Part shown: positions 1 through 33,200 of the stretch, piece after piece
Layout: each line of letters opens with the position of its first letter
Numbering within the stretch: the first letter of the stretch is position 1
Assembly: GCA_038215555.1 (NCBI GenBank)
Contig: JBBQQT010000001.1
Location: forward strand, 1,843 to 65,842
Reading direction: 5' to 3'
Source of the DNA: Burkholderiales bacterium
Lineage (GTDB): Bacteria > Pseudomonadota > Gammaproteobacteria > Burkholderiales > Thiobacillaceae
Length of the DNA stretch: 64,000 nucleotides
Translations under genes and position numbers: made by a program
The notes under the pieces: model-generated
What the model was told of the DNA's origin: nothing
The model's database searches: none
What the model saw: only the letters and a program-made list of their open reading frames with translations

Positions 1-96
1 GATGAACAGGCCGGTAACCAGGCTGCCGCCTTTGCCACCAACGCGAGGATTAGGGTCGTTGCGGCGAGGGGTACTGTTGGTTCTTCGGGCTGACAC
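1..96 (-). CDS. Partial CDS (N-terminus only, GTG start at 96 immediately after the argS stop). It has a basic segment followed by the start of a hydrophobic helix, and may be a SPOR/FtsN-like membrane protein.
   Basis: The reverse-strand reading VSARRTNSTPRRNDPNPRVGGKGGSLVTGLFI stays open to the window edge. No domain is visible. Confidence 0.3.
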   Translation of the reverse strand, partial: MSARRTNSTPRRNDPNPRVGGKGGSLVTGLFI

Positions 97-1908: not shown

Positions 1909-2049
1909 TGCGAAAACCTTTGGCGATACACCTTTAATTGACGCGGATTATAGCGGCAGGCCGGGTTTTTCCGGTGAGCCCCAGGGCAGTGGCGAGTTCG
2001 TCCAGTACTTGCGTCGAATGACGATGTCGATGCCGGTGTTCAAAGACGA

Positions 2050-3879: not shown

Positions 3880-6800
3880 TCGCTCACCAGCACCAGCAAA
3901 TCCTGGCCGGCGCTGACCTGGCCGCCTTCGCGGCAGAACACTTTGTAAACCGTGCCGTCGCAGGGCGCCGTCACGCTGAATTCCATTTTCATCGACTCGA
4001 TGATGACCAGCGCATCGCCGGCCTTCACCTTGTCGCCGTCTGCCGCCATGACTTTCCAGACATTGCCGGCGACGTGGCTGGCGATGGCGCGGCCGTGTTC
4101 GGGCAGGTCGAGTTCGCTGTCGGTGGCGGCTTCGGCGACATGGGCGTCGGTGGCGTATTCGGCCTGGCCGGCGGCTTTCCAGCGTTCGCGCTCGGCCTCG
4201 AACGCGGCTTGCTGTTTCGTCTTGAAAGCAGTGATGGACGCGGCGTTGTCGCTCAGGAAGCGGTTGTAATCGGCCAGGCTGAAGGTGGTTTCCTCGATGC
4301 GCAACGGATAGCGGCCAAGCGGGAAATCCTCGCGTATTTGCAGTAATTCCTCGGCGCTGACCGGGTAAAAACGAATCTGGTCGAAGAAGCGCAGCAGCCA
4401 GGGTTTGCCGTCGGCGAACTGTTGTGTCTGTCGCCAGCGGTTCCACATCTGCAAGGTGCGGCCGACGAACTGGTAACCGCCCGGGCCTTCCATGCCGTAG
4501 ACGCACAGGTAAGCGCCGCCGATGCCGACCGCGTTTTCCGGCGTCCAGGTGCGCGCCGGGTTGTATTTGGTGGTGACCAGACGATGGCGCGGATCGACCG
4601 GCGTCGCTACCGGCGCACCGAGATAGACGTCGCCCAGGCCCATGACCAAGTAGCGGGCCTCGAACACGATGCGCTTCACTTCCTCAATGGATTCCAGATC
4701 GTTGATGCGGCGGATGAATTCGATGTTGGACGGACACCAGGGTGCGTCCTTGCGCACCGATTGCATGTACTTCTCGATCGCCAGTCGGGTCGCGGCGTCG
4801 TCCCAGGACAGCGGAAGATGCACGATGCGGGTCGGTACTTGCATGTCCTCGATGGCGGGGAGTTGCTTCTCCGCTTTCAGCAGCAACGGCAGTAGCTGGT
4901 CTAACGGCAGCAGGCGCGAGTCGTAATGCACCTGCAGCGAGCGGATGCCGGGCGTCAGGTCGAGGATGCCGGCGATGGCGTCAGCTTCCAGCCGGGTCAT
5001 CAGCGCATGCACACGGAAGCGCAGGTTCAGGTCCAACACCAGCGGGCCGTATTCGATCAACAGGTACTTGTCGCCGGCGCGGCGGTAGACGACTTCAACC
5101 GGGTTTTCGGTGAGCGGCGTGCGGTGCAGGATGGGCGTGGCGGTGGGCTCGTCGCTTGTCTTGTGATGCCGGGCTTCGACGCGAAATCCAGTCGTCAAAC
5201 TGGATTCCGGCATGCGCCGGAATGACAAATCTGCGATTACCGCGTCCTGCGCCGCTTCCAGCCGTTCCGCCTCCGCTTGCGACAGACGCACGAAGCGCAC
5301 CGTATCGCCTGGCCGCAACTGGCCCATCTTCCACAACGCCGCCTGCACGATGGTCGCCGGGCAGACGAAGCCGCCCAGGCTGGGGCCGTCCGGACCCAGG
5401 ATGACCGGCATATCGCCGGTGAAATCGATTGCACCGATGGCATAGGCGTTGTCGTGGATGTTGGACGGATGCAGGCCCGCCTCGCCGCCGTCGCGCCGCG
5501 CCCATTCCGGCTTCGGACCGATCAGGCGCACGCCGGTGCGGCTGGAGTTATAGTGCACTTCCCAGTCGGTGGCGAAGAACTGCTCGATGTCTGACTCGGT
5601 GAAAAAATCCGGTGCGCCGTGTGGACCGTAGAGGACACCGATCTGCCAAGTGTGGGTGTAGGCGGGAAGAACTTCGTCATACCGGCGAAGGCCGGTATCC
5701 AGTTCGCTGACCTGAGCGCCAGGCTGGACCCCGGCCTGATGGTCACCCCGGAATGGGGGTATCAGGGGCGGGGTGGCGGCGAGGAGATGCAGCACATCCC
5801 CCACCCGCAGCGTTCTTCCCGCATGACCGCCAAACTGCCCCAGCGTGAAGGTGGACTTGCTGCCCAGGTAGTTCGGTACGTCGAATCCGCCCTGCACCGC
5901 AAGATAAGCGCGACAACCGGTGTCCTTGATGGCACCAAGTTTCAGGATCGAACCGGCCGCGACGACATGCGCAGCCCAGTTGGCGAGCGGCTCGCCATCC
6001 AGTTCCGCGCCCATGTCGGCGCCGGCCAGCGCGATGACGGCGTCGGTGTTGAAGCGCAGGGTCGGCCCGGCGACGGTGAATTCCAGACCGGCCGTGCCTT
6101 CCGTGTTGCCCGCCAGCCGGTTGGCCAGGCGGAAAGCGAGCGGGTCCATCGGTCCGGACGGCGGCACGCCGACGTTCCAGTAGCCGGTGCGGCCCGGCCA
6201 GTCCTGAATGCTGCTCTGCACACCGGGTTCGATCACGTCGAGGGTTGCCGGGCGGTAGCGGAACGCGTTCAGGTAGCGCGTGGTCTGGCGGCCTTCGGCA
6301 AACACGGTGTCGGCCAGAATCTGGCGCAGGTATTCCAGGTTGCATTCGATGCCGGCAATGCGGGTGTCGGCAAGCGCCTGTTGCATCTTGCCCAGCGCGG
6401 CGGCGCGGTCATCCGCTTTGACGATGATCTTGGCCAACATCGGGTCGTAGAACGGCGGCACTTCGCTGCCGCGTTCGACCCAGGTTTCGATGCGCGCATT
6501 CGTTGGCAACCCCTCGGGAAACTCCACTTGGGTCAGTACGCCGGCAGCGGGCTGGAAATCCTTGCCGGGGTCTTCCGCATACAGCCGCACTTGGATCGAA
6601 GCGCCCTGCGGGCGGACGACAAATCCGCTCAAATCCAGCTCACCGGCCGCTTCCAGCACCATCCATTCAACCAGATCGACGCCGCTGACTTCTTCGGTGA
6701 CGCCGTGTTCCACCTGCAAACGGGTGTTCACTTCCAGAAAATAGAACTGGCCGCTCTGTGTGTCGTAGACGAATTCCACCGTGCCGGCGGAACGGTAGCC

Positions 6801-7595
6801 GACCGCCTGGCCCAGTCGCACGGCGGTATCGAACAGGTTCTGCCGTTGCGCATCGGTCAGACCCGGCGCCGGGGTTTCCTCGATGACCTTCTGGTTGCGC
6901 CGCTGCACTGAGCAATCGCGCTCGCCCAGTGCCACGACATGACCCTGGCCGTCGCCGAAGATTTGCACCTCGATATGGCGCGCGTGTTCGACATATTTCT
7001 CCAGAAAAATGCCGGCTTCCTTGAAGTTGGCGCGTGCCAGCCGATCCACCGATTGGAAGGCTTCGACCAGTTCGTCCGCGCTCCAGATCAATCGCATGCC
7101 GATGCCGCCACCGCCGGCGGTGCTCTTCAGCATCACCGGATAGCCGATGCGCGCGGCTTCTGCCTGGGCGTGGCCGGCGTCATTCAGCAAACCGGAACCG
7201 GGCAGCAGCGGTACATGGTGGGCTTCGGCCAGATCACGCGCGGTGTGCTTGAGGCCGAAGGCGCGCATCTGGTCAGGGCTGGGGCCGATGAAGGCGATGC
7301 CGGCGGCGGCGCAGTCTTCCGCGAAGCCGGGGTTTTCCGACAGGAAGCCGTAGCCGGGATGGATCGCCTGCGCGCCGCTGGCTTTCGCGGCGGCGAGTAT
7401 TTTTTCCGCGCGCAGATAGCTTTGCGCCGCCGGTCCGGGACCGATTTCGATGGCCGCGTCAGCCAGACGCACATGCAGCGAATGCCGGTCGGCCTCGGAA
7501 TACACCGCCACGGATTGCACGCCCATGTGGCGCAGGCTGCGGATGATGCGGCAGGCGATGGCGCCCCGGTTGGCGATCAGTACGGTGTTGAACAT
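3876..7595 (-). CDS. Urea carboxylase / guanidine carboxylase (biotin carboxylase + KipI/KipA-like domains + biotinyl carrier)
   Basis: N-terminus [20 protein letters not shown] matches the biotin carboxylase type, the C-terminus has the AMKME-type biotinylation motif (IIESMKMEF), and the length is ~1239 aa. The start at 7595 is preceded by GAGGA. Confidence 0.9.
5185..5226. repeat. Palindromic REP/MITE-like element (AATCCAGT-N6-ACTGGATT then CCGGC-ATGC-GCCGG-AATGAC) inserted in-frame in the carboxylase gene
   Basis: Two nested inverted repeats. The element encodes [15 protein letters not shown] in the gene frame and ...[10 protein letters not shown]... in the opposite frame, which is the typical translation signature of this repeat class. 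Confidence 0.7.
5676..5704. repeat. Second copy of the same palindromic element (GTCATACCGGCGAAGGCCGGTATCCAGTT), in opposite orientation and also in-frame
   Basis: Inverted repeat ATACCGGC-GAA-GCCGGTAT. It encodes [13 protein letters not shown] in the gene frame and VIPAKAGIQ / [10 protein letters not shown] in other frames. Confidence 0.7.
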
Positions 7596-7612
7596 GTGTC
7601 CTCGCATTTCGC

Positions 7613-7634
7613 AAAAAACGCGGGTCGTCCCGCT
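7613..7634 (-). terminator. Intra-operon terminator-like hairpin (GCGGG-ACGA-CCCGC followed by T6) between the second DUF1989 gene and the carboxylase gene
   Basis: The minus strand reads AGCGGGACGACCCGCGTTTTTT. A second GC-rich hairpin (GCGGCGGG...CCCGCCGC) lies at ~7645-7670. Confidence 0.35.
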
Positions 7635-7673
7635 TTCTCATTGCCGCGCGGCGGGCCGTCCCGCCGCCGCGTT

Positions 7674-20075: not shown

Positions 20076-20513
20076 TCAGTGTGCGCTGGATGAGCGGGCT
20101 TCTGCCTGCACCGCCAGTTTCTTTTGCTTGCCGTCAGCGCCTTTGACGATCAGTGTCATCGGTACTTTCTGGCCCGACTTGATCTGGCTTTTCAAGCCGA
20201 TGAACATGACATGCAGATCACCCGGTTCGAGGCTGACCGTTTTTCCCTTCGGCAATTTGATTTCCTGCATCTGGCGCATTTCCATGACGCCGTTTTCCAT
20301 CCGCATGAAATGGAACTCGAATTCCCTGGATACCGGACTGCTGCCGCCGACCAGGGTCATGTCGGCATCGGCGGTCAGTTCCATGAAGCCGCCTGCCACC
20401 TTCTGACCGGGTGCGGTGGCACGCACCCAGGCATTTTCGATCTTGACGTTGTCGGCCAGGGCCGAGGTGGCAAGCAGGCATCCAGTCAGCAGCATTGCGA
20501 GAGATCGTTGCAT
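20076..20513 (-). CDS. Periplasmic copper chaperone PCu(A)C (DUF461)
   Basis: Signal peptide, ...NAWVRATAPGQKVAGGFMEL..., and the H-x-M / M-rich motif (FHFMRMENGVMEM...LHVMF). Confidence 0.85.
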   Translation of the reverse strand: MQRSLAMLLTGCLLATSALADNVKIENAWVRATAPGQKVAGGFMELTADADMTLVGGSSPVSREFEFHFMRMENGVMEMRQMQEIKLPKGKTVSLEPGDLHVMFIGLKSQIKSGQKVPMTLIVKGADGKQKKLAVQAEARSSSAH

Positions 20514-20581: not shown

Positions 20582-22870
20582 TCAGAACTTGACGTTCAAG
20601 CCCGCGTAGATCGAGCGGCCCGTTCCGGGTACGGCGGTGCCCCATTGCGGGTAATTGGGCAACGCCGGGTTAGTCATGGTCGTGCCTTGGCCGGTGTAAG
20701 CGCCGCCGGCGGGCAGATAGTAAAACTTGTCGAACAGGTTTTCGACGCCGAAATCGACGCGCACCTGCTTCCATGCGTAACTGCCGCGCAGGTTGACCAG
20801 GCCATAGCCCGGTGTCTTGATTTCGTTGCGGATTGCCGAAACCTTGTCCTTGGCATCCACCATCACCCATTCGGCGCTGTTGTCCCAGCCACCTTTCTTC
20901 TGGTTGAGCGCGAGTTTGGCGTTGAGCGGCATGATGTTGTAAAGGCCATCACCGGTGTCTCGGTTAGTGCCTTTGGTGTAGTTCAGCAGACCCTTCAGCG
21001 CGAAGGCGCCCCAATCGGTTTTTGCCAGCGGCATCTGGCCGGAGAGGTCGATGCCGTATATCCGCGCCGATTGATTGATGTATTTGAGGACGCTGAATTT
21101 GTCCGTTGTGGGTGCGACGGTGGGCAGGTTGGTGGTCGCGTTCCATTGCACTGCGTCGATGTAATCGTCTACCTCGGCGTAATGCGGCGTCGCCTTGAAA
21201 GTCCAGGCACCATCGACGGCGTGCCAATCGAAAGTGGCGGAGATCTTGTTGGCTTTTTCCGGCTTCAGGTCGATGTCGCCGAGATAACCGTTGCCGTCGC
21301 CCACAAAGTTGTTCATCAGCGCGGCCATCTGCCAGGTGGACCAGGTGTAGCGTTCATAGACATTGGGCGAGCGCTCTTTGTGGGCAAAGCCGAACTCGAT
21401 GTCGAGATTTGCGTCGGCGGTGTAACGGGCAAGCGCGGTGAGATCCAAATTGTGGTCGATCTTCTTGCGATCCTGGGCGTTGAAAGCGGCGGCATCCCGC
21501 GCCTGGAAACTCATCATATTGGCCGGGTTGTAACCCACGACATCACCAGCATTCATCTTGACCTGTTCGACGCGCGCGCCCAGCAGTGTTATCCAGTTGG
21601 ATCGCTTGCGCGCTTCCCATTCGCCAAACAGCGCGGCGCGATCACGTTCACCGTCTTTGATGTTCCAGAAAGTGCCCGGCCACATGCCAGCGCCTGACGG
21701 CGGCCACCAGTCGTCAAGCCGGTATTGCTGAATTTCGCCGCCGACCCGCAAGCGGTCTTGCGCGGTGATGGCGACATCCGCCTTGACGCTGAATCCCGTC
21801 GTTTTACCTTCGGTGTACATCGGCATGCCGGCGGCACAGGTGGCGCTGATCGGGTTGCATGGAGAGCCATCGACTGCGGTGGGGCCACCGGAGCCGATGG
21901 GCGGCACACCATTGCCATACCAGAATCGTTTGTCGGCACCAAAGTCCATGAAGTGATCGACTTTCTCGTGATAGGCGCGGGCCTCAAGCGAGCCCCAATC
22001 CAGCTTGCCCAGATAGCGCAAGTTAAGACTGTTCTGCTCGTTATTCAGCATGTCCATGCGCTGATTGGGGTAGAGCTGAAACGGCATGTCCTGGAAACCC
22101 AGTTTGGCTTCAAACAGATGTGCGTCGTTCTTGAACGCGAGTCCAATGGCGTGGTTGCGGGTTTCATAGGCGGTGGAGCCAACTTCATCTCGCGGCAACG
22201 TGTGGCCCATGCGGCCGGTGATGTCGTAGTTTTTGAAGTCGTTGCCAGCCGTGTAGTTGTCGGCCTGGCTGGTGGCGCCGCTGTAGCTGATATTGAATTT
22301 CTGGTTGGCATAAGTGGCCGAGGCATTGGCCCCGCGCGCGTTATTGTTGCTGCGGTAGAACACACCGGCTTCGCCTTTTGTGATGGCGGCTTGGCCGGGT
22401 GCGGCGAACTCGGGGGCGCGCGATTCGGCGATGATGGCGCCGCCGATGGCATCGCCGCCGCTGCTGACCGGGGTGATGCCGGCATAGACTTTGAGTGTTT
22501 CCAGATTGGTCGGATCAATGTAGGACAGCGCCGGATTCATGTGATTCGGGCAGGATGCGATCAAATCCATGCCATCCAGTTTGATCCGCAGACGGTCATC
22601 GGCCAGGCCGTGAATGGAGGGCAGGCTGGAAACGCCGCCCGAGCCATACAAACTGACGCCGGGAACATCGCGCAGCAAACTCGCCGTGTCGCTGGTGGAA
22701 GAGCGCATCGACGCCAATTCGGTTTCGCCAAGTTTGACCACGCTTGAACGTTGCAGCGAACTTCTTGGCGCGGTCACGACGATTTCGTCCAAGGTCGGTA
22801 TGTCTGCCGCAATGCCAAAAAAGGGGCTGGCGGCCAATACCGCGACAATGGGGTTCAAGCGGAACTTCAT
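20582..22870 (-). CDS. TonB-dependent receptor, OprC/NosA-like putative copper importer
   Basis: Plug domain (DEIVVTAPR, TonB-box-like), a 22-strand-size barrel and a terminal ...GLNVKF. CxxxM (SCPNHM) and HxM (DHFMD) motifs are present. The gene is followed by the PCuAC gene. Confidence 0.8.
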   Translation of the reverse strand: MKFRLNPIVAVLAASPFFGIAADIPTLDEIVVTAPRSSLQRSSVVKLGETELASMRSSTSDTASLLRDVPGVSLYGSGGVSSLPSIHGLADDRLRIKLDGMDLIASCPNHMNPALSYIDPTNLETLKVYAGITPVSSGGDAIGGAIIAESRAPEFAAPGQAAITKGEAGVFYRSNNNARGANASATYANQKFNISYSGATSQADNYTAGNDFKNYDITGRMGHTLPRDEVGSTAYETRNHAIGLAFKNDAHLFEAKLGFQDMPFQLYPNQRMDMLNNEQNSLNLRYLGKLDWGSLEARAYHEKVDHFMDFGADKRFWYGNGVPPIGSGGPTAVDGSPCNPISATCAAGMPMYTEGKTTGFSVKADVAITAQDRLRVGGEIQQYRLDDWWPPSGAGMWPGTFWNIKDGERDRAALFGEWEARKRSNWITLLGARVEQVKMNAGDVVGYNPANMMSFQARDAAAFNAQDRKKIDHNLDLTALARYTADANLDIEFGFAHKERSPNVYERYTWSTWQMAALMNNFVGDGNGYLGDIDLKPEKANKISATFDWHAVDGAWTFKATPHYAEVDDYIDAVQWNATTNLPTVAPTTDKFSVLKYINQSARIYGIDLSGQMPLAKTDWGAFALKGLLNYTKGTNRDTGDGLYNIMPLNAKLALNQKKGGWDNSAEWVMVDAKDKVSAIRNEIKTPGYGLVNLRGSYAWKQVRVDFGVENLFDKFYYLPAGGAYTGQGTTMTNPALPNYPQWGTAVPGTGRSIYAGLNVKF

Positions 22871-22890
22871 TTTTTTATGACTCCGAGATC

Positions 22891-22929
22891 AAAAAAATGG
22901 CCCGCTGCGGGCATGAACCGAAGCGGGCC
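22891..22929 (-). promoter_or_regulatory. Terminator-like hairpin with a U7 tract inside the 5' leader of the TonB-receptor gene (possible attenuator or riboregulator expression platform)
   Basis: The minus strand reads GGCCCGC-N17-GCGGGCC-ATTTTTTT and ends ~20 nt before the GGAG RBS and ATG. Confidence 0.35.
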
Positions 22930-23007
22930 GCAAGATACGTCAGTACGTCAAAAGCCGTAAACGTATGGAAGCGAAGCCATCTTAGCGAGGCGCGCCGGGC
23001 GCCGGAA

Positions 23008-23024
23008 TGCGACATGTTGTCGCA
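23008..23024. promoter_or_regulatory. Perfect 7-3-7 palindrome TGCGACA-TGT-TGTCGCA (GCGAC-N5-GTCGC), a candidate RegA/PrrA/RegR box
   Basis: Read directly in the regB / TonB-receptor divergent spacer, 53 nt upstream of the regB ATG. Confidence 0.45.
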
Positions 23025-23076
23025 GGCAAGGTTGGTGTCGCCGGATAGCTTGGTGTTGGCCGTTAGAATCGTTGTC

Positions 23077-24339
23077 ATGTCCCTTTTTCAAAAACTGTTC
23101 CGGGTTGACACCGAGGTGTTGCCGCAGCTTGCCCAGCAACGCTTGATCAAGGTGCGGGCGACGCTGATTCTGGGCGAGTGGCTTGGCATTGGCCTGTTGA
23201 CCTGGGTATTGCATGCGCGCTTGCCACTGGTTTCGCTCGCTTTGATTCTTGCCCTGCATGTCGCGTTGAACGGTGTTGCCTGGCTGCGTTTGCGCGCTGG
23301 CGGCGTGGCACTGACCGAAGTGACGCTGCAACTGGCAGTGGATGCGGCTTGCATTGGCGCCCTGGTGTATTTGACCGGGGGGTATGCCAACCCGTTCATT
23401 TCGCTGTTGCTGGTGCCGCTGATTCTGGCTGCGGTGACCTTGCCGCCGCTGCATGCCTGGGGCATGGCGGTCTGGGTCGGCGGCTTGTACACAGTGTTGA
23501 TGCGCTTTTATCAACCGCTGCAGATCCAGGTTTCGGCTGAGGCGGCGGTCGATCTGCATCTGTCCGGCATGTGGTTGAACTTTCTCCTCACTGCCGCGTT
23601 GGTCGCCGCCTTCGCCGGCCGTCAAGCGGCCACGTTGCGCCTGCGCGATGCCGAGCTGGCGCAGGCGCGTGAGCAGCGGTTGCGTGACGAGCAATTGTTT
23701 GCGCTTGGCCTGCAAGCCGCTACTGCGGCGCATGACCTGGCAACGCCGATGAGTTCGGTGCGCATCACGCTGGATGAACTGTGGCGCGACTACGCCGGTG
23801 ATGATGAACTCGATCAACCGCTCGGCCTGCTTGCCGGGCAGGTTGCCCGCATGCAAGCGGTGCTTGATCGATTAGGGGATTCCGCGCGCGGTCGCGGTGA
23901 CCGCGTCGGTCCGCCGATCGCCGTTCAAGTCTGGTTGGCGCGGACGCTGGAACGCTGGGGATTGATGTGGCCGCAAGTTCGAGTCACGCTCGACCTGGAT
24001 ACCGAACTCAATGCAAGTCAGCCTTTGCTGACCGACGATCCGGCGCTGGAGGCGATTCTGGTGGTGCTGCTTAATAATGCGGCGCAGGCCTCGCCCGACG
24101 CGGTGTTGTTGCGTGCCCGCGTCTTGCCGCAAAGCCTGCTCCTGGAAGTGATCGATCGCGGCGGTGGCTTCGATTCCGGCAAGGCCGAGGGCTGGGGCGT
24201 CGGCTTGGAACTCGCCCGCGCGACGCTCGAACGCATCGGCGGCAGTCTCGAAATCGGCGCTTCAGCGGCGGGGACGTCTGTAGTGGGCGGCGTCAGCGCG
24301 CGCATCCGCCTGCCGCTGGCGTCTGTCGAGGTGGCATGA
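23077..24339 (+). CDS. regB: Redox-responsive sensor histidine kinase, RegB/PrrB/ActS family
   Basis: Six predicted TM helices including GGYANPFISLLLVPL, the H-box LATAAHDLATP and a C-terminal ATPase domain. Confidence 0.8.
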   Translation: MSLFQKLFRVDTEVLPQLAQQRLIKVRATLILGEWLGIGLLTWVLHARLPLVSLALILALHVALNGVAWLRLRAGGVALTEVTLQLAVDAACIGALVYLTGGYANPFISLLLVPLILAAVTLPPLHAWGMAVWVGGLYTVLMRFYQPLQIQVSAEAAVDLHLSGMWLNFLLTAALVAAFAGRQAATLRLRDAELAQAREQRLRDEQLFALGLQAATAAHDLATPMSSVRITLDELWRDYAGDDELDQPLGLLAGQVARMQAVLDRLGDSARGRGDRVGPPIAVQVWLARTLERWGLMWPQVRVTLDLDTELNASQPLLTDDPALEAILVVLLNNAAQASPDAVLLRARVLPQSLLLEVIDRGGGFDSGKAEGWGVGLELARATLERIGGSLEIGASAAGTSVVGGVSARIRLPLASVEVA

Positions 24340-24881
24340 TGCGTTGGCATATCCTGATCGTGGATGATGATGCCGTGTTTGCGCAGACACTGGCGTTGGC
24401 GATGACGCGCCGTGGTTATACGGTGGCGACGGCGGCGAACAGTCCGGCTGCGCTGGATTTGGCGGCGTCTCAAGTATTCGATGCGGTGGTGCTGGATTTG
24501 CGTCTCGGCACCGAGTCCGGCCTGCATCTGATCGAACCGTTGCGGGCGCGGCAACCGCTGGCGCGGCTGCTGTTGCTGACCGGCTATGCCAGCATCGCGA
24601 CCGCGGTGGCGGCAATCAAGTTGGGGGCTGTACAGTATTTGCCGAAGCCGGCCAGCGTCGATGAAATCCTCGCTGCTTTGGGCGATGCCGATGCTGCTGC
24701 GGGCAGTGATGCGGATGTCGAGACGGCGACCGAGCCGTTATCGGTCGATCGGCTTGAGTGGGAGCATATCCATCAGGTGTTGGCGCAGCACGAGGGCAAT
24801 CTTTCTGCTACCGCGCGCGCCCTGAAAATGCATCGCCGCACCTTGCAGCGGAAACTGGCGAAGCGGCCGGTGAAAGCCTGA
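24336..24881 (+). CDS. regA: Response regulator RegA/PrrA/ActR family (REC + Fis-type HTH)
   Basis: ILIVDDD..., the C-terminal GNLSATARALKMHRRTLQRKLAK, and an ATGA overlap with regB. Confidence 0.85.
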   Translation: MMRWHILIVDDDAVFAQTLALAMTRRGYTVATAANSPAALDLAASQVFDAVVLDLRLGTESGLHLIEPLRARQPLARLLLLTGYASIATAVAAIKLGAVQYLPKPASVDEILAALGDADAAAGSDADVETATEPLSVDRLEWEHIHQVLAQHEGNLSATARALKMHRRTLQRKLAKRPVKA

Positions 24882-24886
24882 TCGAC

Positions 24887-25426
24887 TCAGGGCGTCAGGG
24901 TTTCGATCAGGATGTTGCGGTTGGTGTAGATGCAGATATCGGCGGCGATGCCGATCGATTCGCGAACGATGGCTTCAGGATCCAGGTCGCTATGTTCCAG
25001 CAGAGCGCGTGCAGCAGACTGGGCGTAGGCGCCGCCGCTGCCGATGGCGGCGATGCCTTGTTCCGGTTCCAGTACATCGCCAGCGCCGGTAATGATCAGC
25101 GTGCTGGTGCGATCAGCCACCGCCAGCATGGCTTCCAGGCGACGCAGGATGCGATCGGTGCGCCAGTCTTTGGCCAGTTCCACTGCGCTTCTGACCAGAT
25201 GGCCCTGGTGTTTTTCCAGCTTCGATTCAAATCGTTCAAATAGTGTAAAAGCATCCGCCGTGCCGCCCGCGAAGCCGGCCAGGATGCGTTCCTGGTACAG
25301 GCGGCGAATTTTGCGCGCGCTGGCCTTGATGACGATATTGCCCAATGTGACCTGGCCGTCCCCGCCCATCGCGACAGACTCGCCGCGTCGAACCGAAAGA
25401 ATGGTGGTGCCGTGAAATTGTTCCAT
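24887..25426 (-). CDS. hslV: ATP-dependent protease subunit HslV
   Basis: [15 protein letters not shown]... (N-terminal Thr after processing) and [14 protein letters not shown]. Confidence 0.95.
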
Positions 25427-25459: not shown

Positions 25460-26587
25460 TTAGACGCGAGTGCGTCCAAGTACGACCGAAAATTGGCTGG
25501 CGCCAACGATATGCAACAAAGTGTTGACCAACTCGTTGCCTTCCTTGAACAGGATTTTGCTGCCATTGCCAGAAATGGCGATCAGCGTTTCGAGCAGCAG
25601 CCCGACGACCGAGAAATCGATGCGGCTGACCTGGCTCAGGTCGATTTCAACCTGCTTGCGACCTTGGGCGTATTTTTTCAGCGCATCGAATTGCAATTCA
25701 CTGCCTGGACCAATCTGGCCGGTCAGTTTGAACGCGACCTCCGGTGCTTGCGCAACCCGAACTTCCGCGACGCTGTTCTTGCTTGGCATCGGAAGCGGCT
25801 GCGTGTAGGACGGGGGGGAAACCTCGTAAGCGACAGCGTAATCGACGGCGACGTTTTCGAAATCATCTTCCCGACCGAGCAATTGCAGTATCGCCAGAAA
25901 CAGGAACCAGCCCGATTCGGTCAGGCGATTGCCCTGTCGCGCGGCATCGAGGCGCACCGAAAAACCGGGACCGCCGATCAGTTCGACCGGTTTGCGCATC
26001 TCGTGCAAGTGAACGATATTGCTCAGGATGGCATTCGAAGTGTCTTCATCCGGCGCCAGTGTTTTAGATACATCGAGCCGAACATAAGGCGCATGCACGG
26101 CATCCTGGAAAAAGCGACCTTGTTTGACCCGTTCCAGCGTGCCGTATTTTTCACCATAAGATATCAACGGAGCCGGGGCGCTGACTCGCTTGGGTTTGTC
26201 ATGCGGCGTCCAGGTCGGTGGCGATCGTTCAAACCTAACCGCGAAATCGACTGCGGCATCTTCAAATGGGGCTGACTGGTCGCTCACCTCATAGAGATCA
26301 AACAGCATGTACCAAGGCAGCGGATCATGGTTGTCACGGTGATCCAGCAGGTAGCGATTGAGCAGGGTTGCGGTCTCGCCGATCTTGCCATTGGCAAACA
26401 GAACAGCGGCCTCCTCGAGTTCGGGCGGCAGGCCACCCAAGGCTTCCTGAACCTCGATGCCAGCACCCATGTCTTCAATGGGTGGCTTGACGCCCGCATA
26501 GGCTGGCCCGGGGCCGAACGCGTCATTACCCTCCTTCAGGAAAGCAAGGAAATCATCAGGCTTCTCTTTGCGGAAGAAAGAAAACAC
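25460..26587 (-). CDS. Hypothetical protein with internally duplicated modules and a C-terminal STAS (anti-sigma-antagonist-like) domain
   Basis: FEDAAVDFAVRFERSPPTW and FENVAVDYAVAYEVSPPSY are repeated motifs. The C-terminal segment LTGQIG...VEIDLSQVSRIDFSVVGLLLE is STAS-like. Confidence 0.6.
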   Translation of the reverse strand: MFSFFRKEKPDDFLAFLKEGNDAFGPGPAYAGVKPPIEDMGAGIEVQEALGGLPPELEEAAVLFANGKIGETATLLNRYLLDHRDNHDPLPWYMLFDLYEVSDQSAPFEDAAVDFAVRFERSPPTWTPHDKPKRVSAPAPLISYGEKYGTLERVKQGRFFQDAVHAPYVRLDVSKTLAPDEDTSNAILSNIVHLHEMRKPVELIGGPGFSVRLDAARQGNRLTESGWFLFLAILQLLGREDDFENVAVDYAVAYEVSPPSYTQPLPMPSKNSVAEVRVAQAPEVAFKLTGQIGPGSELQFDALKKYAQGRKQVEIDLSQVSRIDFSVVGLLLETLIAISGNGSKILFKEGNELVNTLLHIVGASQFSVVLGRTRV

Positions 26588-26699: not shown

Positions 26700-27620
<921 letters not shown>

Positions 27621-27859
27621 CTACAAAGGCGCAAACGACGAAGGGAACAAACAGATACCGTCGATGAATTTATTTTTCCAAATGGGTTCAGGGCAGCACG
27701 TATAGCTTGAGTTACGGGATTTAAAGAGTTGCCTATCTTGTTGTATTTAATAAAGAACTTGCTGATTCAGAGGCGCGCGCCTAAATTGCGGCGTCCTATG
27801 AAAAATCATTGGATGCACGGATCAGGCCAAGGCGCGAGCGCGCATTGTTCTCCGTGCTT

Positions 27860-27883
27860 GAACACAGTCTCAGGTAGGGCGTT
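27860..27883 (+). promoter_or_regulatory. Candidate ECF-sigma-type promoter (GAAC-N16-CGTT) upstream of the RiPP precursor gene
   Basis: tGAACacagtctcaggtagggCGTTcc lies ~45 nt upstream of the ATG. This is a motif-level match only. Confidence 0.25.
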
Positions 27884-27926
27884 CCCTTTCCCGGCATTCT
27901 TTGTTTCAACAATCAGGAGATACAAC

Positions 27927-28364
27927 ATGGCTACGAAAAAAACAGCTCTGACCCTCGCTCTCGGTTCCGCCATCGCGGCTACCTTTTCGGTAACGCTGAC
28001 ATCGGCTGCCGAAAATCCGTTTGCCGCTCAGGCTTTGCAAGCCGGCTATATGGTCACTGAGGCGAAAACCCCGGAAGGCAAATGTGGCGAGGGCAAGTGT
28101 GGTGGCGACAAAGCCAAGGCCAAGGAAGGCAAATGTGGCGAGGGCAAGTGTGGTGGCGACAAAGCCAAGGCCAAGGAAGGCAAATGCGGCGAGGGCAAGT
28201 GTGGTGGCGACAAAGCCAAGGCCAAAGAAGGCAAATGCGGTGAAGGCAAGTGCGGCGGTGACAAAGCCAAGGCCAAGGAAGGCAAATGTGGTGAAGGAAA
28301 ATGCGGTGGCGCCAAGACCAAAGAAGGTAAATGTGGCGAAGGCAAATGCGGTGGCAAGAAGTAA
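27927..28364 (+). CDS. Secreted Cys-repeat RiPP precursor (HvfA/MovA-like; six EGKCGEGKCGG units)
   Basis: AGGAGA RBS, Sec signal MATKKTALTLALGSAIAATFSVTLTSA|AE, then 6 units (12 Cys). The gene lies immediately upstream of the DUF692 and DUF2063 genes. Confidence 0.8.
   Translation: MATKKTALTLALGSAIAATFSVTLTSAAENPFAAQALQAGYMVTEAKTPEGKCGEGKCGGDKAKAKEGKCGEGKCGGDKAKAKEGKCGEGKCGGDKAKAKEGKCGEGKCGGDKAKAKEGKCGEGKCGGAKTKEGKCGEGKCGGKK
28074..28361 (+). repeat. Coding tandem repeat: 4 x 51 bp (EGKCGEGKCGGDKAKAK) plus 45-bp and 39-bp variants
   Basis: Units 1 and 2 are identical at the DNA level. Units 3-6 differ mainly at synonymous positions and in the Lys/Ala spacer. Confidence 0.95.
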
Positions 28365-28383
28365 TTGATACGCCTTTGTTGAC

Positions 28384-29241
28384 ATGACATCCCCGCGTCT
28401 CTCCGGCGCGGGACTCGGGTTTCGGCGCGATTTATTATCTGATCTTCAGGCTGCGCTGAAATCCGGGCTTCCGACAGGAATCGACTTTTTTGAACTCGCG
28501 CCAGAAAACTGGATCGATCTGGGCGGCCGCTATGCCCGCGATCTGCGCCAGTTCACCGAGCGGTTTGCCTTTGTCTGTCACGGTTTGTCGCTTTCTCTTG
28601 GCGGGTTGACGCCGCTGGATGAAGTGCTGCTGCGCAAGATCAAGGCCTTCATGGCCGAACATCGTATTTCGCTCTACACGGAACACCTGTCCTACTGTTC
28701 CGATCATGGTCATCTCTATGATCTGCTGCCGATTCCGCCAACCGCCGACGCGGTGAAGTATGTCGCTACCCGGATTCGTCAGGTGCAGGACATCCTGGAA
28801 CAGAAAATCGCCATCGAGAACGCCAGTTATTACGTTGCGGCCCCGATCGGTGAAATGGACGAGCCGACCTTCATCAATGCCGTGCTGCAGGAAGCCGACT
28901 GCCTGCTGCATCTTGATGTGAACAACATCTACGTCAACAGCGTCAACTTCAAGTTCGATCCGCTCGACTATCTGAAACGCATGCCGGCAGAACGTATCGT
29001 TTATATGCACATGGCGGGGCATTACCAGGAAGCAGCGGATCTGATCATCGACACGCACGGCGCCGATGTCATCGACCCAGTCTGGCAATTGCTGGACGCC
29101 GCTTACGCGATGTTGGGCGTGCATCCGACCTGTCTGGAACGGGATTTCAACATCCCGCCCTTGCGCGATTTGATGCCCGAGGTGACTCGCATTGCGCAGA
29201 TTCAATCGCACTATCTGAAGCAATCCGTGCGGGCAGCCTAA
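28384..29241 (+). CDS. DUF692 / MNIO (multinuclear non-heme iron oxidative) RiPP maturase, MbnB/BufB/HvfB-like
   Basis: GLGFRRDL..., FFELAPENW, HGLSLSLGG, YTEHLSY, IENASYY, LHLDVNNIY and DTHG are DUF692-type conserved blocks. Confidence 0.9.
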   Translation: MTSPRLSGAGLGFRRDLLSDLQAALKSGLPTGIDFFELAPENWIDLGGRYARDLRQFTERFAFVCHGLSLSLGGLTPLDEVLLRKIKAFMAEHRISLYTEHLSYCSDHGHLYDLLPIPPTADAVKYVATRIRQVQDILEQKIAIENASYYVAAPIGEMDEPTFINAVLQEADCLLHLDVNNIYVNSVNFKFDPLDYLKRMPAERIVYMHMAGHYQEAADLIIDTHGADVIDPVWQLLDAAYAMLGVHPTCLERDFNIPPLRDLMPEVTRIAQIQSHYLKQSVRAA

Positions 29242-29242
29242 G

Positions 29243-30079
29243 ATGGATTTTCAGCAGTACCAGCGCGAATTTGCCGCCCATATTCGCGATCCGCGCCATG
29301 TCAGACGTCCGAAGGGCGTGCCGGCGCGGCGAATGAAGGTTTACAACGACCTGTTGCGCAACAATCTGGAAGGTTTTTTGCTGTCCTGTTTTCCGGTGTG
29401 CCGAAAGATCCTGGGTAAACGCCGATGGGACCGGTTGGTGTCAGCATTTTTCCGCGACCATGCCTGCCACACGCCCTTTTTTCGTCAGATACCGGATGAA
29501 TTCCTGAAGTATCTGCAAGCCGGCTATTTGCCAGCCGAATCGACCTCGCTGGCGGGGGTGCAAGGAAGCTTGCCCGAGTTCCTGCCCGAGTTGGCGCATT
29601 ACGAATGGATTGAGCTGGAACTCGACACTTCCGATCGCGATGCGAGAGGGACAAGCGATGTTTCAAATGATCTGTCAACTGATCTGTCAACTGATCTGTC
29701 AACTGATGTGATTGCCCACGATTCCACTACTGATCCTCTGGCGGGGCGGTTAATCCTCAACCCGGTTCTGCGCGTGCTGGCCTATCGCTGGCCGGTGCAT
29801 CGGCTGTCTCCACGTTTCAAGCCGAGTCAGCCGCCGGCGGAAGCGACCTTCATGCTGGCGTTTCGCGATGCAGAGTTTCACGTCCACTTCATTTTGCTCA
29901 ACGCGGCCAGCGCCCGTTTGCTGACCTTGTTGCAGGAAAATCCGGATCTGAGCGGTCATCAGGTGGTGAGCCGGTTGGCGCTCGAGTTGGGTATGCCATC
30001 TGACCCGTTGGTGAAATTCGCTCGGCCATTGGTACAAGACTTGCTTGTTCAAGGTGCGTTTGTTGGCGTATCGATTTGA
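29243..30079 (+). CDS. DUF2063 family RiPP maturation partner (BufC/HvfC-like)
   Basis: The N-terminus FQQYQREFAAHIRDP...MKVYNDLLRNNLEGFLLSCFPV...W..LVSAFFRDH is typical of DUF2063. The gene starts 1 nt after the DUF692 stop. Confidence 0.85.
   Translation: MDFQQYQREFAAHIRDPRHVRRPKGVPARRMKVYNDLLRNNLEGFLLSCFPVCRKILGKRRWDRLVSAFFRDHACHTPFFRQIPDEFLKYLQAGYLPAESTSLAGVQGSLPEFLPELAHYEWIELELDTSDRDARGTSDVSNDLSTDLSTDLSTDVIAHDSTTDPLAGRLILNPVLRVLAYRWPVHRLSPRFKPSQPPAEATFMLAFRDAEFHVHFILLNAASARLLTLLQENPDLSGHQVVSRLALELGMPSDPLVKFARPLVQDLLVQGAFVGVSI
29668..29707 (+). repeat. Coding 12-bp tandem repeat x ~3.3 (TGATCTGTCAAC; DLSTDLSTDLSTD) in the DUF2063 inter-domain linker
   Basis: Read directly. Confidence 0.9.
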
Positions 30080-30272
30080 AGTGGCAGTTCCTGGCTCGGC
30101 AAGAAATCCAGCGGTTGAACTGAGTCGGTGATGAAAGTAGTATCCCGCGCCCGGTTTTACATAAATGCGCCTAAATTTTCATGCCCGATCCGATATCGGG
30201 CGAGCCGCTCTGAGACACCCTCGGTTTGGAGCGCGCGCAGTGGTTAGACGAGGGATGGATGGGTGAGCAGTA

Positions 30273-33200
30273 ATGCGGTCAGCGGCAATGCCAGCAAGAC
30301 AGGGTTTATACGATCCGACGAACGAACATGATGCGTGCGGGGTTGGTTTCGTCGCCCATATCAAAGGGGAAAAGAGCCATGGCATCGTGCGCCAGGGTTT
30401 GCAGATTCTGAAGAATCTGACCCATCGTGGTGCAACCGGCTACGATCCGAAGCTCGGTGATGGTGCCGGTATTCTGATTCAGATCCCCGATGCTTTCCTG
30501 CGTCAAGAAGCCGCCAAGCTGGCAATCACGCTGCCGCCAGTCGGTGAATATGCATGTGGCACGGTGTTCTTGCCGCAATCCGGCAATGGCCGCGTCGCGT
30601 GTGAATCCGCCATTGCTCGCATCGTCCACGAAGAAGGGCAGCGTTTCCTTGGCTGGCGCGATGTGCCGCGCGACAACAGCGATATTGCCGCCGCCGCGAT
30701 CGCCATCGAGCCGGTCATGCGCCAGGTGTTCATTGGCCGCGGTGCCGGTCTTGCCGACCAGAATGTGTTCGAGCGCAAGCTGTTCGTGATTCGCAAGCGG
30801 GTCGAGCACGCCGTGCGCGGCCTCAAGCTGGATGACGGTTCGCAGTTCTACATTCCCTCGCTGTCTTCGCGCACGCTGGTCTACAAGGGCATGCTGCTGG
30901 CCGAGGAAGTCGGCACCTATTACCTCGATTTGCAGGATGAGCGCATGGTGTCGGCGCTGGCGCTGGTGCATCAGCGTTTTTCCACCAATACTTTCCCTGC
31001 CTGGGATCTGGCGCATCCGTTCCGGATGATTGCGCACAATGGCGAAATCAACACGCTGCGTGGCAACGTCAACTGGATGACCGCGCGCCATGGCGCGATG
31101 AAGTCGGCCATGTTGGGCGACGATCTGGCCAAGCTCTGGCCGCTGATTGCCGAAGGCCAATCGGATTCGGCGTCGTTTGATAACGCGCTGGAACTGCTGG
31201 TCGCCGGCGGTTACTCGTTGCCGCACGCGATGATGTTGCTGATTCCGGAAGCCTGGTCGAACAATCCGCTGATGGATGAAGATCGGCGCGCGTTCTATGA
31301 ATACAACGCCGCACTGATGGAACCCTGGGATGGGCCCGCTGCGGTCGCCTTCACCGATGGCCGCGTGATCGGCGCCACGCTGGATCGCAACGGGTTGCGT
31401 CCGGCGCGCTATCTGGTGACCGATGACGACTTCGTGATGATGGCGTCGGAAATGGGCGTGCTGACCTTCCCGGAAGAGAAGATCGTCAAGAAATGGCGTT
31501 TGCAGCCGGGCAAGATGCTGCTGATCGACATGGAGCAAGGCCGCATCCTCTCCGATGAGGAGGTCAAGCAGTCGCTGGCGAAAGCCAGGCCTTATCGCGA
31601 GTGGATCGAGGAATCGCGCTACTTCCTCGGCGATCTGCCGAAAGTCGATGTCAAGCTGGACCTGCCGGCTGGCGTGCTCGATGCGCAGCAGGCGTTTGGC
31701 TACACGCAAGAAGACCTCAAATTCATCATGTTGCCGATGGCGAGCAATGGTGAAGAGGCGACGGGTTCGATGGGTAACGATGCCGCTTTGCCGGTGTTGT
31801 CGGCCAAGGCGAAGCCGTTCTATCACTACTTCAAGCAGTTGTTCGCGCAGGTGACCAATCCGCCGATCGACCCGATCCGGGAAGAACTGGTGATGTCGCT
31901 GGTGACCTTCATCGGGCCGAAGCCGAACCTGCTCGGCTTGCATGACAACCTCGATACGAGTGATCTGCCATTGCGCCTGGAAGCCAGCCAACCGGTGTTG
32001 CTGCCGGAGGAACTGGCCAAGTTGAAAGTGATCGACAGCCTGACCCGCAATCGTTTCCGCGCATTGGTGGCTGATATCACCTATCCCGTGGCGCAGGGCG
32101 TCAAGGGCATGCGTGATGCGATCGCCGCCTTGTGCGAAGCCGCCGAGCAATCGGTACCTGACGGCTTCAATGTGCTGATCCTGTCCGATCGCGCGGTGAG
32201 TCCGGATCGTGTGGCGATCCCAGCCCTGCTGGCCTGCGCGGCGGTACATCATCATTTGGTGCGCGCCGGTTTGCGGACCAACACCGGTCTGGTGGTTGAT
32301 ACCGGTTCGGCGCGCGAAACACATCACTTCGCGTTGCTGGCTGGTTATGGCGCGGAAGCGGTGTGTCCGTGGCTGGCTTTCGAGACCATCGCCGGATTCG
32401 GTCTGCCGGACAGCAAGGAGGCGCAGAAGAAGTTCGTCAAGGCGGTCGGCAAGGGCTTGTACAAGGTGATGTCCAAGATGGGCATCTCGACCTACCAGTC
32501 TTATTGCGGCGCGCAGATTTTTGATGCGATTGGCCTCAACAGCGCTTTCATCGACGCCTACTTTCCGGGTACGTCGAGCAATGTCGAAGGCATCGGCTTG
32601 CTGGAAGTGGCGGAAGAAGCGCTGCGCCAGCATCAGGCTGCTTTCGGAATCGACCCGGTGCTGGCCAACGCGCTCGAAGCCGGCGGCGAATATGCCTTCC
32701 GCGTGCGGGGTGAAGATCACCTGTGGACGCCGGATTCCATCGCCAAATTGCAGAATGCGACACGCACCGGCAAATACGAGACCTACAAGGAATATGCCCG
32801 CCTGATCAACGATCAGAGCAAGCGGCATCTGACTTTGCGCGGCTTGTTCGAGATCAAATCGGCCGGCGCGCCGGTGCCGCTGGAAGAAGTCGAATCGGCG
32901 GCCAGCATCGTGACCCGGTTTGCCACCGGCGCGATGTCGCTCGGTTCGATTTCCACCGAGGCGCATACCGTACTGGCGCTGGCGATGAACCGCATCGGCG
33001 GCAAGTCGAATACCGGTGAGGGCGGCGAGGATGCGGTGCGCTTCCAGCCGGTGAAGAGCGATACCACCTTGTCCGAACTGATCGGCAAGAGCCGAGTTGT
33101 CGCCGACATTCCGCTGAAAGCCGGCGATTCGATGCGTTCCAAGATCAAGCAGGTGGCGTCCGGTCGTTTTGGCGTCACCGCCGAATACCTTGCCAAAGCC

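Follow-up and report, generated by a model that had tools for sequence, protein, structure and literature searches.

A three-gene hvfABC cluster with a twelve-cysteine EGKCG-repeat precursor in a Burkholderiales bacterium

What does a compact three-gene cluster, set between argB and gltB/gltD on a contig from a Burkholderiales bacterium, produce, and what might its product have to do with copper? We addressed this question in a stretch of 64,000 nucleotides (nt) from contig JBBQQT010000001.1 of assembly GCA_038215555.1, the whole of which is called the window below. An original prediction, made from the sequence itself, had described the cluster as encoding a multi-site, secreted, copper-binding peptide that is made on the ribosome and modified after translation (RiPP), a description that agrees with curated family models and, by analogy, with the family literature. 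The three products of the cluster pass the NCBIfam models for HvfA, HvfB and HvfC, with hidden Markov model (HMM) E-values of 2.8e-40, 2.2e-125 and 6e-79, which identifies it as an hvfABC-type EGKCG captophorin cluster. We consider it very likely that the region is an hvfABC operon for an EGKCG-repeat captophorin of the oxazolin, gonophorin and fontiphorin family, acting by the full mechanism proposed below, and nothing was found in the sequence to contradict this assignment. Gene content, family membership, operon structure and the conservation of catalytic and specificity residues could be read directly. The family has already been described, with four members characterised experimentally, and since NCBI curated models cover it, standard annotation should name all three genes. 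Within this widespread family the cluster is a real and well-preserved member, large in its 12 sites and otherwise ordinary.

The precursor and its maturation proteins

hvfA (27927-28364, + strand) encodes a precursor of 145 amino acids with 12 cysteines, of the EGKCG captophorin type (oxazolin family). It passes both NF050188 (the HvfA equivalog) and NF050137 (KCGExKCG_twice), the latter with 135.6 bits against a cutoff of 19.5 in 5 matched stretches, in line with the predicted RiPP-precursor identity; it has no match in Pfam and none at E ≤ 1 in a sequence search of the PDB. The start codon is preceded at a distance of 7 nt by a Shine-Dalgarno sequence read as AGGAG (27915-27919, +), the GGAG of which is unchanged across seven aligned relatives. 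From its N-terminus the protein consists of MATKKTALTLALGSAIAATFSVTLTSA, AENPFAAQALQAGYMVTEAKTP and six EGKCGEGKCGG units. Residues 1-26 (27927-28004, +) constitute a predicted Sec-type signal peptide with the n/h/c layout of such signals, in which MATKK is followed by the 19-residue hydrophobic run TALTLALGSAIAATFSVTL and by TSA, with AE beyond the predicted signal peptidase I site. Small residues occupy positions -1 and -3 of this site, and relatives carry an A-x-A-type site at the equal position (VSA before AENPF, for example), two residues ahead of a conserved ENPF; by eye and by alignment, layout and position are matched in about 70 related precursors. Cleavage would thus be expected after TSA26. 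The signal-cleaved protein, of about 11.7 kDa, is rich in Lys and Gly and has a calculated pI of 9.1.

Directly after the signal stands the conserved segment AENPFAAQALQAGYMVTEAKTP (28005-28073, +; residues 27-49), a 23-residue spacer that had been estimated at about 20. Its pattern ENPF-x4-L-x2-GY-MVA is the best-conserved part of HvfA precursors, and the NPF..L..GY motif was found in 102 of the 120 best family matches and in nearly every precursor of 80 related loci, which we obtained by an HvfB scan of species-representative genomes and labelled with L-numbers. The segment may be leader-like, and it is a candidate contact for the recognition domain of HvfC.

The HvfA core (28074-28361, +) is built of six EGKCGEGKCGG units, four of 17 amino acids, one of 15 and one of 13, which start at residues 50, 67, 84, 101, 118 and 133 and carry the linkers DKAKAK (four times), AKTK and a terminal KK. 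All 12 cysteines (positions 53, 58, 70, 75, 87, 92, 104, 109, 121, 126, 136 and 141) lie in a G-K-C-G context and none lies outside the repeats. Tandem Repeats Finder reports the repeat at 28073-28355 with a period of 51 nt (17 amino acids), 5.7 copies, 89% matches and a score of 391. Over the 15 unit pairs the 11-codon motif differs at 62 codons synonymously and at none non-synonymously, and the first four units, compared over 17 codons, show 22 synonymous and no non-synonymous differences. Such synonymous-only divergence indicates selection on the peptide sequence, and the HvfA repeats are under purifying selection. Several open reading frames (ORFs) in other frames or on the other strand also span the repeat, for example 27906-28385 (-); we regard them as by-products, because the repeat is free of stop codons and selection acts on the hvfA frame. 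The original prediction had placed the 145-residue ORF, its strong ribosome-binding site, the Sec signal, the six units and the 12 G-K-C-G cysteines correctly.

hvfB (28384-29241, +) begins after a gap of 19 nt from the hvfA stop codon, which ends at 28364, and encodes a multinuclear non-heme iron oxidative enzyme (MNIO, formerly DUF692) of 285 amino acids. It scores 417.5 bits against NF003818, the HvfB family MNIO-type RiPP peptide maturase (cutoff 360), and 336 bits against PF05114 of Pfam, and stays under the cutoffs of the BufB model NF050167 (246.6 bits, cutoff 310) and of the MbnB model TIGR04159 (35.3 bits, cutoff 325). The closest solved structure is PDB 3BWW, an MNIO of Histophilus somni (E = 2.4e-75). 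Residue conservation was read from an alignment of 81 orthologues, with ligand positions assigned by sequence motif and residue roles taken from published work (PMC12668002; bioRxiv 10.64898/2026.07.17.739211). The putative iron ligands H66, H101, E145, D178, H209 and E252 are invariant, as are the site-3 residues N181, D223 and H225, the residue D254, which is equivalent to the catalytic base FonB-D249, and R14. R15 is found in 80 and F255 in 78 of the 81 sequences; together with R14 they match by motif the Arg-Arg pair and the Phe that set the specificity for Lys-Cys. Judged by this conservation, the active site of HvfB is intact.

hvfC (29243-30079, +) follows the stop codon of hvfB, which ends at 29241, after a gap of 1 nt; the sequence confirmed both spacings as predicted. 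The product, of 278 amino acids, is a PME1-type partner whose N-terminal domain is DUF2063/HvfC_N and whose C-terminal domain is of the RiPP recognition element (RRE) type. It reaches 265.2 bits against NF050145, the HvfC family RiPP maturation protein (cutoff 142), and has Pfam domains PF09836 at residues 5-91 (96.7 bits) and PF22106 at residues 173-268 (89.6 bits), in addition to a weak PqqD-like match at residues 218-268; the closest solved structure is PDB 3DEE, NGO1945 (E = 1.3e-15). The profile searches thus bear out the DUF692/MNIO and DUF2063 identities proposed for the two genes. The linker between the two domains (29540-29737, +) holds a lineage-specific acidic insertion of about 30 residues, rich in Ser and Thr, which is missing in six of seven aligned relatives. 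Within it Tandem Repeats Finder detected a 12-nt repeat (29663-29707; 3.8 copies, 96% matches) that encodes DLSTDLSTDLST, with DLST three times; the closest relative, L002, has the insertion and lacks the DLST expansion.

Relatives and chromosomal position of the cluster

The 80 related loci come almost entirely from betaproteobacteria (Hydrogenophilales, Thiobacillaceae, Nitrosomonadaceae and Rhodocyclales-type), the best relative of HvfB, at 96% identity, being that of Betaproteobacteria bacterium bin_151. Each of the 80 carries hvfABC, and their precursors vary. A protein search with HvfA returned more than 7000 relatives, some of which bear the label HvfA family in their source records; among the 120 best matches the majority have 8 cysteines, and the 12 of HvfA stand at the high end, inside the published range. 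The precursor is the most variable part of the locus, with 2-12 cysteines and differing linkers, while HvfB and HvfC stay conserved, and the comparison set thus captures a precursor that evolves fast at a fixed chromosomal position beside conserved enzymes. Many Thiobacillus and Nitrosospira precursors carry an EF-hand-like loop pair (DxNKDGKISKEE ... DANKDGFIDK) between their EGKCG motifs. These include ORFs 5′ of hvfB in L024, L027, L037, L040, L045-L048, L056, L059-L062, L064, L067, L068, L070, L076 and L080.

The window has argB upstream of hvfABC and gltB/gltD downstream, and a divergent argB is found 5′ of hvfABC in 58 of the 80 loci, with gltB directly 3′ in the closest 16 or so. L004 and L005 are collinear with the window from its position of about 20 kb to about 37 kb, and for L003 and L010 collinearity sets in at about 23 kb and 25 kb; nucleotide identity is 74-86%. 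A recent insertion of the cluster between argB and gltB is rejected by this collinearity; together with the recurrent argB-hvfABC arrangement it indicates that the place between core genes is inherited. The original prediction, which had seen the cluster as wedged between argB and gltBD, was accurate on position, but the sense of an insertion gives way to conserved synteny.

Two departures from this arrangement were observed among the relatives. L002 is 87% identical in nucleotide sequence to the window along 8.5 kb downstream, but about 35 nt 5′ of the hvfA start homology ceases altogether: its positions 1-7536 show no homology to the window upstream of 27891 and no argB lies within 8 kb, the break being either a rearrangement breakpoint or a metagenome-assembly join. 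L003, L006 and L009 have an extra 480 nt or so between argB and hvfA, apparently a small gene on the minus strand (alignment columns ~80-560), a stretch missing from the window, L004, L005 and L010.

The cluster had also been described as lacking a DoxX gene, a protease and an exporter. A tblastn search of the 64-kb window with a Pfam-verified DoxX from L034 confirmed that no DoxX is found (best E = 0.99). The three absences stand as an observation, but not as a peculiarity, being typical for the family. DoxX lies 3′ of hvfC in 15 of the 80 loci, all Rhodocyclales-like. Four gammaproteobacterial loci (Thiohalophilus, Kangiella, Paraglaciecola and a Thalassolituus-like contig) have a bare A-B-C arrangement among housekeeping genes, and no DoxX was found in them. 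These four loci and fonABC, a characterised cluster without DoxX, indicate that DoxX is not a defining feature of the family.

Predicted product and alternative explanations

Modification, export route, copper binding and physiological role can be approached by analogy with characterised members. Oxazolin of nontypeable Haemophilus influenzae derives from an HvfA with three AEGKCGEGKCG motifs and six cysteines that is modified by HvfB together with HvfC; the modified HvfA binds Cu(I), and the fourth gene of the hvf operon encodes a DoxX-like protein of unknown role (PMC11252979). Sec export and cleavage have been shown experimentally for HvfA (PMC11252979) and BufA (PMC11626156). The chemistry of oxazolin was originally assigned as oxazolone/thioamide (PMC11252979). 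Oxazolin and gonophorin have since been reassigned to 5-thiooxazole, with captophorins proposed as the class name (PMC12668002), and the Rosenzweig group independently reached the same reassignment of oxazolin (bioRxiv 10.64898/2026.06.05.730506), the methods being alkylation-assisted heteronuclear multiple-bond correlation nuclear magnetic resonance and comparison with methanobactin (PMC12668002; bioRxiv 10.64898/2026.06.05.730506). The oxazolone/thioamide pairs that the original prediction had given for EGKCG precursors are superseded by this work. Its use of MovA as a name for such precursors was likewise mistaken, MovA being the substrate of MovX in a Vibrio methanobactin-like operon (PMC12452194). 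A mixed-valent diiron cofactor constitutes the enzyme's active form (bioRxiv 10.64898/2026.07.17.739211, from the Rosenzweig group). The Buf_EGKCG/oxazolin family has about 2000 non-redundant members of 31-506 residues with up to 58 cysteines, its type 1 architecture being a 17-residue repeat with two EGKCG motifs; its clusters occur mostly in Pseudomonadota and differ in how they combine genes for the precursor, MNIO, DUF2063 and DoxX (PMC12452194).

On these precedents HvfA would be translated as a 145-residue precursor and, in the cytoplasm, HvfB bound to HvfC would perform a four-electron oxidation of the Cys in each Lys-Cys-Gly site, converting it with the carbonyl of the preceding Lys to a 5-thiooxazole. 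By comparison with relatives all 12 cysteines would be expected to react, each with a loss of 4 Da (about 48 Da in total) and with absorbance near 305 nm. HvfC would grip the substrate through its RRE-type C-terminal domain, probably aided by the NPF..L..GY segment. The still-unfolded product would then leave through Sec and be cut by signal peptidase I after TSA26, a route that would need no dedicated protease or exporter. The mature periplasmic protein of about 11.7 kDa is predicted to bind Cu(I) through thiooxazole N/S ligands, with the high affinity expected from oxazolin, fontiphorin and gonophorin and with roughly one Cu per heterocycle pair, which would give about six or more per molecule. 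Its most likely role would be to sequester or buffer periplasmic copper.

Among the characterised systems, fonABC of Fontimonas thermophila (PMC12668002 / PMC13097082) has a minimal organisation, with three genes for an EGKCG precursor, an MNIO and a DUF2063/RRE partner and no DoxX; in this minimal version, already reconstituted experimentally, FonABC installs seven 5-thiooxazoles and up to four Cu are bound (PMC12668002). The cluster in the window shares this gene set and, by prediction, modification at Lys-Cys-Gly sites, and its HvfB keeps the Arg-Arg pair, the catalytic Asp and the next Phe (R14, R15, D254 and F255). It differs in its 12 predicted sites against the seven modified cysteines of FonA, in its HvfC, the linker of which is longer by an acidic insertion of about 30 residues, and in its host, that of fonABC being a gammaproteobacterium. 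With hvfABCX of nontypeable H. influenzae (PMC11252979) it shares a Sec-type precursor, paired EGKCGEGKCG motifs, the gene order A-B-C, proteins that pass the HvfB and HvfC equivalog models and, presumably, a Cu(I)-binding product. It has six double motifs rather than three (6 Cys), however, and no DoxX in the 64-kb window in place of the fourth gene, hvfX; in H. influenzae, a pathogen, the product acts as a virulence factor, whereas the host here is an uncultured environmental Hydrogenophilales/Thiobacillaceae-like bacterium.

From the Buf_EGKCG/oxazolin type 1 pattern, with its 17-residue two-EGKCG repeat and Sec signal, we found no essential difference, and 145 residues and 12 cysteines lie well within the family range of 31-506 residues and up to 58 Cys (PMC12452194). 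The bufferins BufABC(D) of Caulobacter vibrioides (PMC11626156) likewise combine an MNIO with a DUF2063 partner and, by analogy, would share 5-thiooxazole chemistry, Sec export and periplasmic copper binding with the product considered here. Their precursors belong to the DUF2282 or Buf_6/12Cys types and carry no EGKCG repeats, whereas HvfA has no Pfam match, HvfB remains under the BufB cutoff (246.6 against 310) and the cluster contains no sigma/anti-sigma (NrsF) genes. Methanobactin (MbnABC) is similar in that an MNIO converts Cys in a ribosomal peptide by oxidation into a heterocycle that binds copper; it differs in its oxazolone/thioamide chemistry, a leader peptide instead of a Sec signal, the partner MbnC instead of a DUF2063 protein, and dedicated export with the TonB receptor MbnT, and HvfB reaches 35 bits against the MbnB cutoff of 325. 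The cluster is thus a clean example of its family, with 12 sites, six near-perfect 17-residue repeats and minimal gene content without DoxX, from an uncultured sulfur-oxidiser-like betaproteobacterium.

Several points weigh against the reading of the region as a copper-binding captophorin operon. The match of HvfA to the equivalog model NF050188 is marginal (97.0 bits, cutoff 95, residues 4-94), and its single-sequence AlphaFold2 model is of low confidence, with a mean predicted local distance difference test score of 59.5 and a predicted template modelling score of 0.39; its periodic short strands are in keeping with the beta-helix that has been published, but the prediction is too weak for use. 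The N-terminal disulfide pair C38/C43 of the H. influenzae HvfA is missing. We found neither a copper-responsive regulator nor a recognisable operator adjoining the operon, and a search for a copper-regulator operator 5′ of hvfA recognised no known box. Even for oxazolin and fontiphorin the copper stoichiometry is not settled (PMC11252979; PMC12668002), the choice between buffering and acquisition as physiological role is unresolved in the literature, and for the organism considered here the evidence is that of its sequence.

Could the 145-residue ORF be spurious, a frame that happens to stay open across repetitive DNA of low complexity? The repeat is indeed crossed by several further ORFs, off-frame as well as antisense, but the chance of this is negligible and the explanation can be regarded as refuted: between units the variation is synonymous-only in the hvfA frame, relatives conserve the ribosome-binding site, the signal peptide and the NPF..GY motif, and the ORF matches curated HMMs. 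Another explanation accepts the protein but takes it to be mainly an unmodified Cys-rich metal binder, or a binder of a metal other than copper, with HvfB and HvfC dispensable or acting elsewhere. Unmodified HvfA does keep 2-3 Cu(I) after desalting (PMC11252979), fusions to MerC or EF-hand domains in some members of the family point to other metals (PMC12452194), and EF-hand inserts occur in the Thiobacillus relatives. We nevertheless consider it highly improbable, given the tight A-B-C coupling kept in all loci examined, the near absence of precursor genes from genomes without MNIO and partner genes (PMC12452194) and the finding that modified HvfA competes with bicinchoninic acid for Cu(I) while unmodified HvfA does not (PMC11252979). 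Conversion of each Cys to an oxazolone/thioamide pair, as in methanobactin, is less probable still. It has the original assignment of oxazolin on its side (PMC11252979), and the two products are isomers that differ only by an O/S exchange; against it are the reassignment by two independent groups (PMC12668002; bioRxiv 10.64898/2026.06.05.730506), the 35 bits of HvfB against the MbnB cutoff of 325 and the presence in HvfB of the Lys-Cys-type specificity residues of 5-thiooxazole-forming enzymes.

The same 5-thiooxazole chemistry could also serve copper acquisition or hand-off, the product acting as a periplasmic Cu(I) reservoir, a relay or a released chalkophore that, with an OprC-like receptor and the copper chaperone PCuAC, would supply cuproenzymes. 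This role is unlikely on the present evidence. In its favour, hvfC, PCuAC and the receptor are adjacent in 20 of the 80 loci, and in the window, L004 and L005 the PCuAC-receptor pair is found 5-8 kb upstream; an OprC-type CxxxM and a candidate HxM are retained by the receptor; and a chalkophore is among the roles proposed for oxazolin (PMC11252979). The linked loci all belong, however, to one family-level lineage, in which shared ancestry may explain the pattern, and neither PCuAC nor a TonB receptor lies within 8 kb of hvfABC in the four gammaproteobacterial loci. OprC has been reported to import unchelated copper, inactivation of the bufferin operon of Bordetella pertussis did not mimic a mutant in the copper importer crtA (PMC12914433), and it is mostly an excess of metal that induces 5-thiooxazole pathways (PMC12668002).

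Copper-related and other features around the operon

The original prediction had noted copper-related neighbours at a distance of 5-8 kb. Two of them were borne out, a periplasmic copper chaperone PCuAC (20076-20513, -; PF04314, 114.5 bits) and an OprC-like TonB-dependent receptor with Plug and barrel domains (20582-22870, -), both outside the operon. The best solved relative of the receptor is OprC (E = 2.6e-19), whose plug segment C-P-N-R-M aligns to C107-P-N-H-M111. The copper ligand set of OprC is reportedly Cys-Met-His-Met, and a candidate H306-F-M308 is conserved in the receptor orthologues, although the OprC alignment does not place it; C107, M111, H306 and M308 are invariant or nearly so in 16 orthologues. 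The score against the TonB-copper equivalog TIGR01778 (122.7 bits) is far under the cutoff of 472, so that OprC-like appears a fair description while identity with OprC itself is not established. A CrtA-type identity was considered and is unlikely, as CrtA orthologues are without conserved Cys and Met (PMC12914433) whereas the receptor keeps CxxxM.

A PCuAC orthologue stands tail-to-tail directly 3′ of hvfC, at a distance of about 30-430 nt, in 20 of the 80 loci (L024, L027, L045, L046, L049, L055, L059-L062, L067, L068, L070-L072, L076-L078, L080 and L081). All 20 are Thiobacillus-type, the cultured T. denitrificans DSM 12475 among them, and in most a receptor orthologue comes next (54-66% identity), in either orientation. 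Since the window, L004 and L005 have the pair upstream instead, the linkage survives rearrangement within the lineage. A link across the whole family is rejected by the four gammaproteobacterial loci described above. The hvfC-PCuAC-receptor link was not found in the MNIO, bufferin and captophorin literature searched, where no work combined TonB, PCuAC or OprC with MNIO, DUF692 or DUF2063 and where these three names do not occur in PMC12452194 or PMC11626156, and the adjacency is the sole element that goes beyond that literature. It is compatible with copper supply and could equally be inherited synteny. That the captophorin of Hydrogenophilales/Thiobacillaceae is functionally coupled to an OprC-like importer and PCuAC, as a Cu(I) reservoir or relay feeding the cuproenzymes of respiratory, denitrifying chemolithotrophs, seems doubtful at present. 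If true, such coupling would bear on whether oxazolin-type peptides are chalkophores or buffers, and the Thiobacillus loci, with T. denitrificans DSM 12475, would offer a tractable system for the question of copper supply versus defence.

The third neighbour named in the original prediction, regBA, held up as a RegB/RegA-like pair. A RegB/PrrB/ActS-like kinase and a RegA/PrrA/ActR-like regulator (~22744-24881, +), divergent from the receptor-PCuAC pair, have these families as their best matches but score below the equivalog cutoffs (148.5 bits against 350 and 172.5 against 250). The start codon of the kinase is uncertain because its listed ORF overlaps the receptor gene.

In the argB-hvfA intergenic region the best-conserved stretch of a seven-locus alignment is a block at 27731-27787 (+), which contains a putative sigma-70 promoter of hvfA with a -35 element TTGCTG (27759-27764), a 17-nt spacer and a -10 element TAAATT (27782-27787); the perfect 10-bp GC palindrome GGCGCGCGCC lies inside the spacer. 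We assign this promoter tentatively, from its phylogenetic conservation. A consensus scan of 27500-30400 called no promoter 5′ of hvfA and no convincing terminator 3′ of hvfC. Neither intergenic gap of hvfABC holds a terminator-like site, the only match on the + strand lies inside hvfC (29419-29441), and the number of such matches is below the expectation from shuffled sequence. An Rfam scan found no RNA element near hvfABC.

Two further features of the window were observed away from the operon. hslV (24887-25426, -; 300 bits) has no hslU evident alongside; the RegB/RegA-like genes lie downstream on the opposite strand, and upstream is a 375-amino-acid protein (25460-26587) with a weak C-terminal STAS match. 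A match to the Guanidine-II (mini-ykkC) riboswitch (7620-7667, -; 38.8 bits, gathering score 32) is located immediately 5′ of an ORF of 1243 amino acids on the minus strand (3876-7607).

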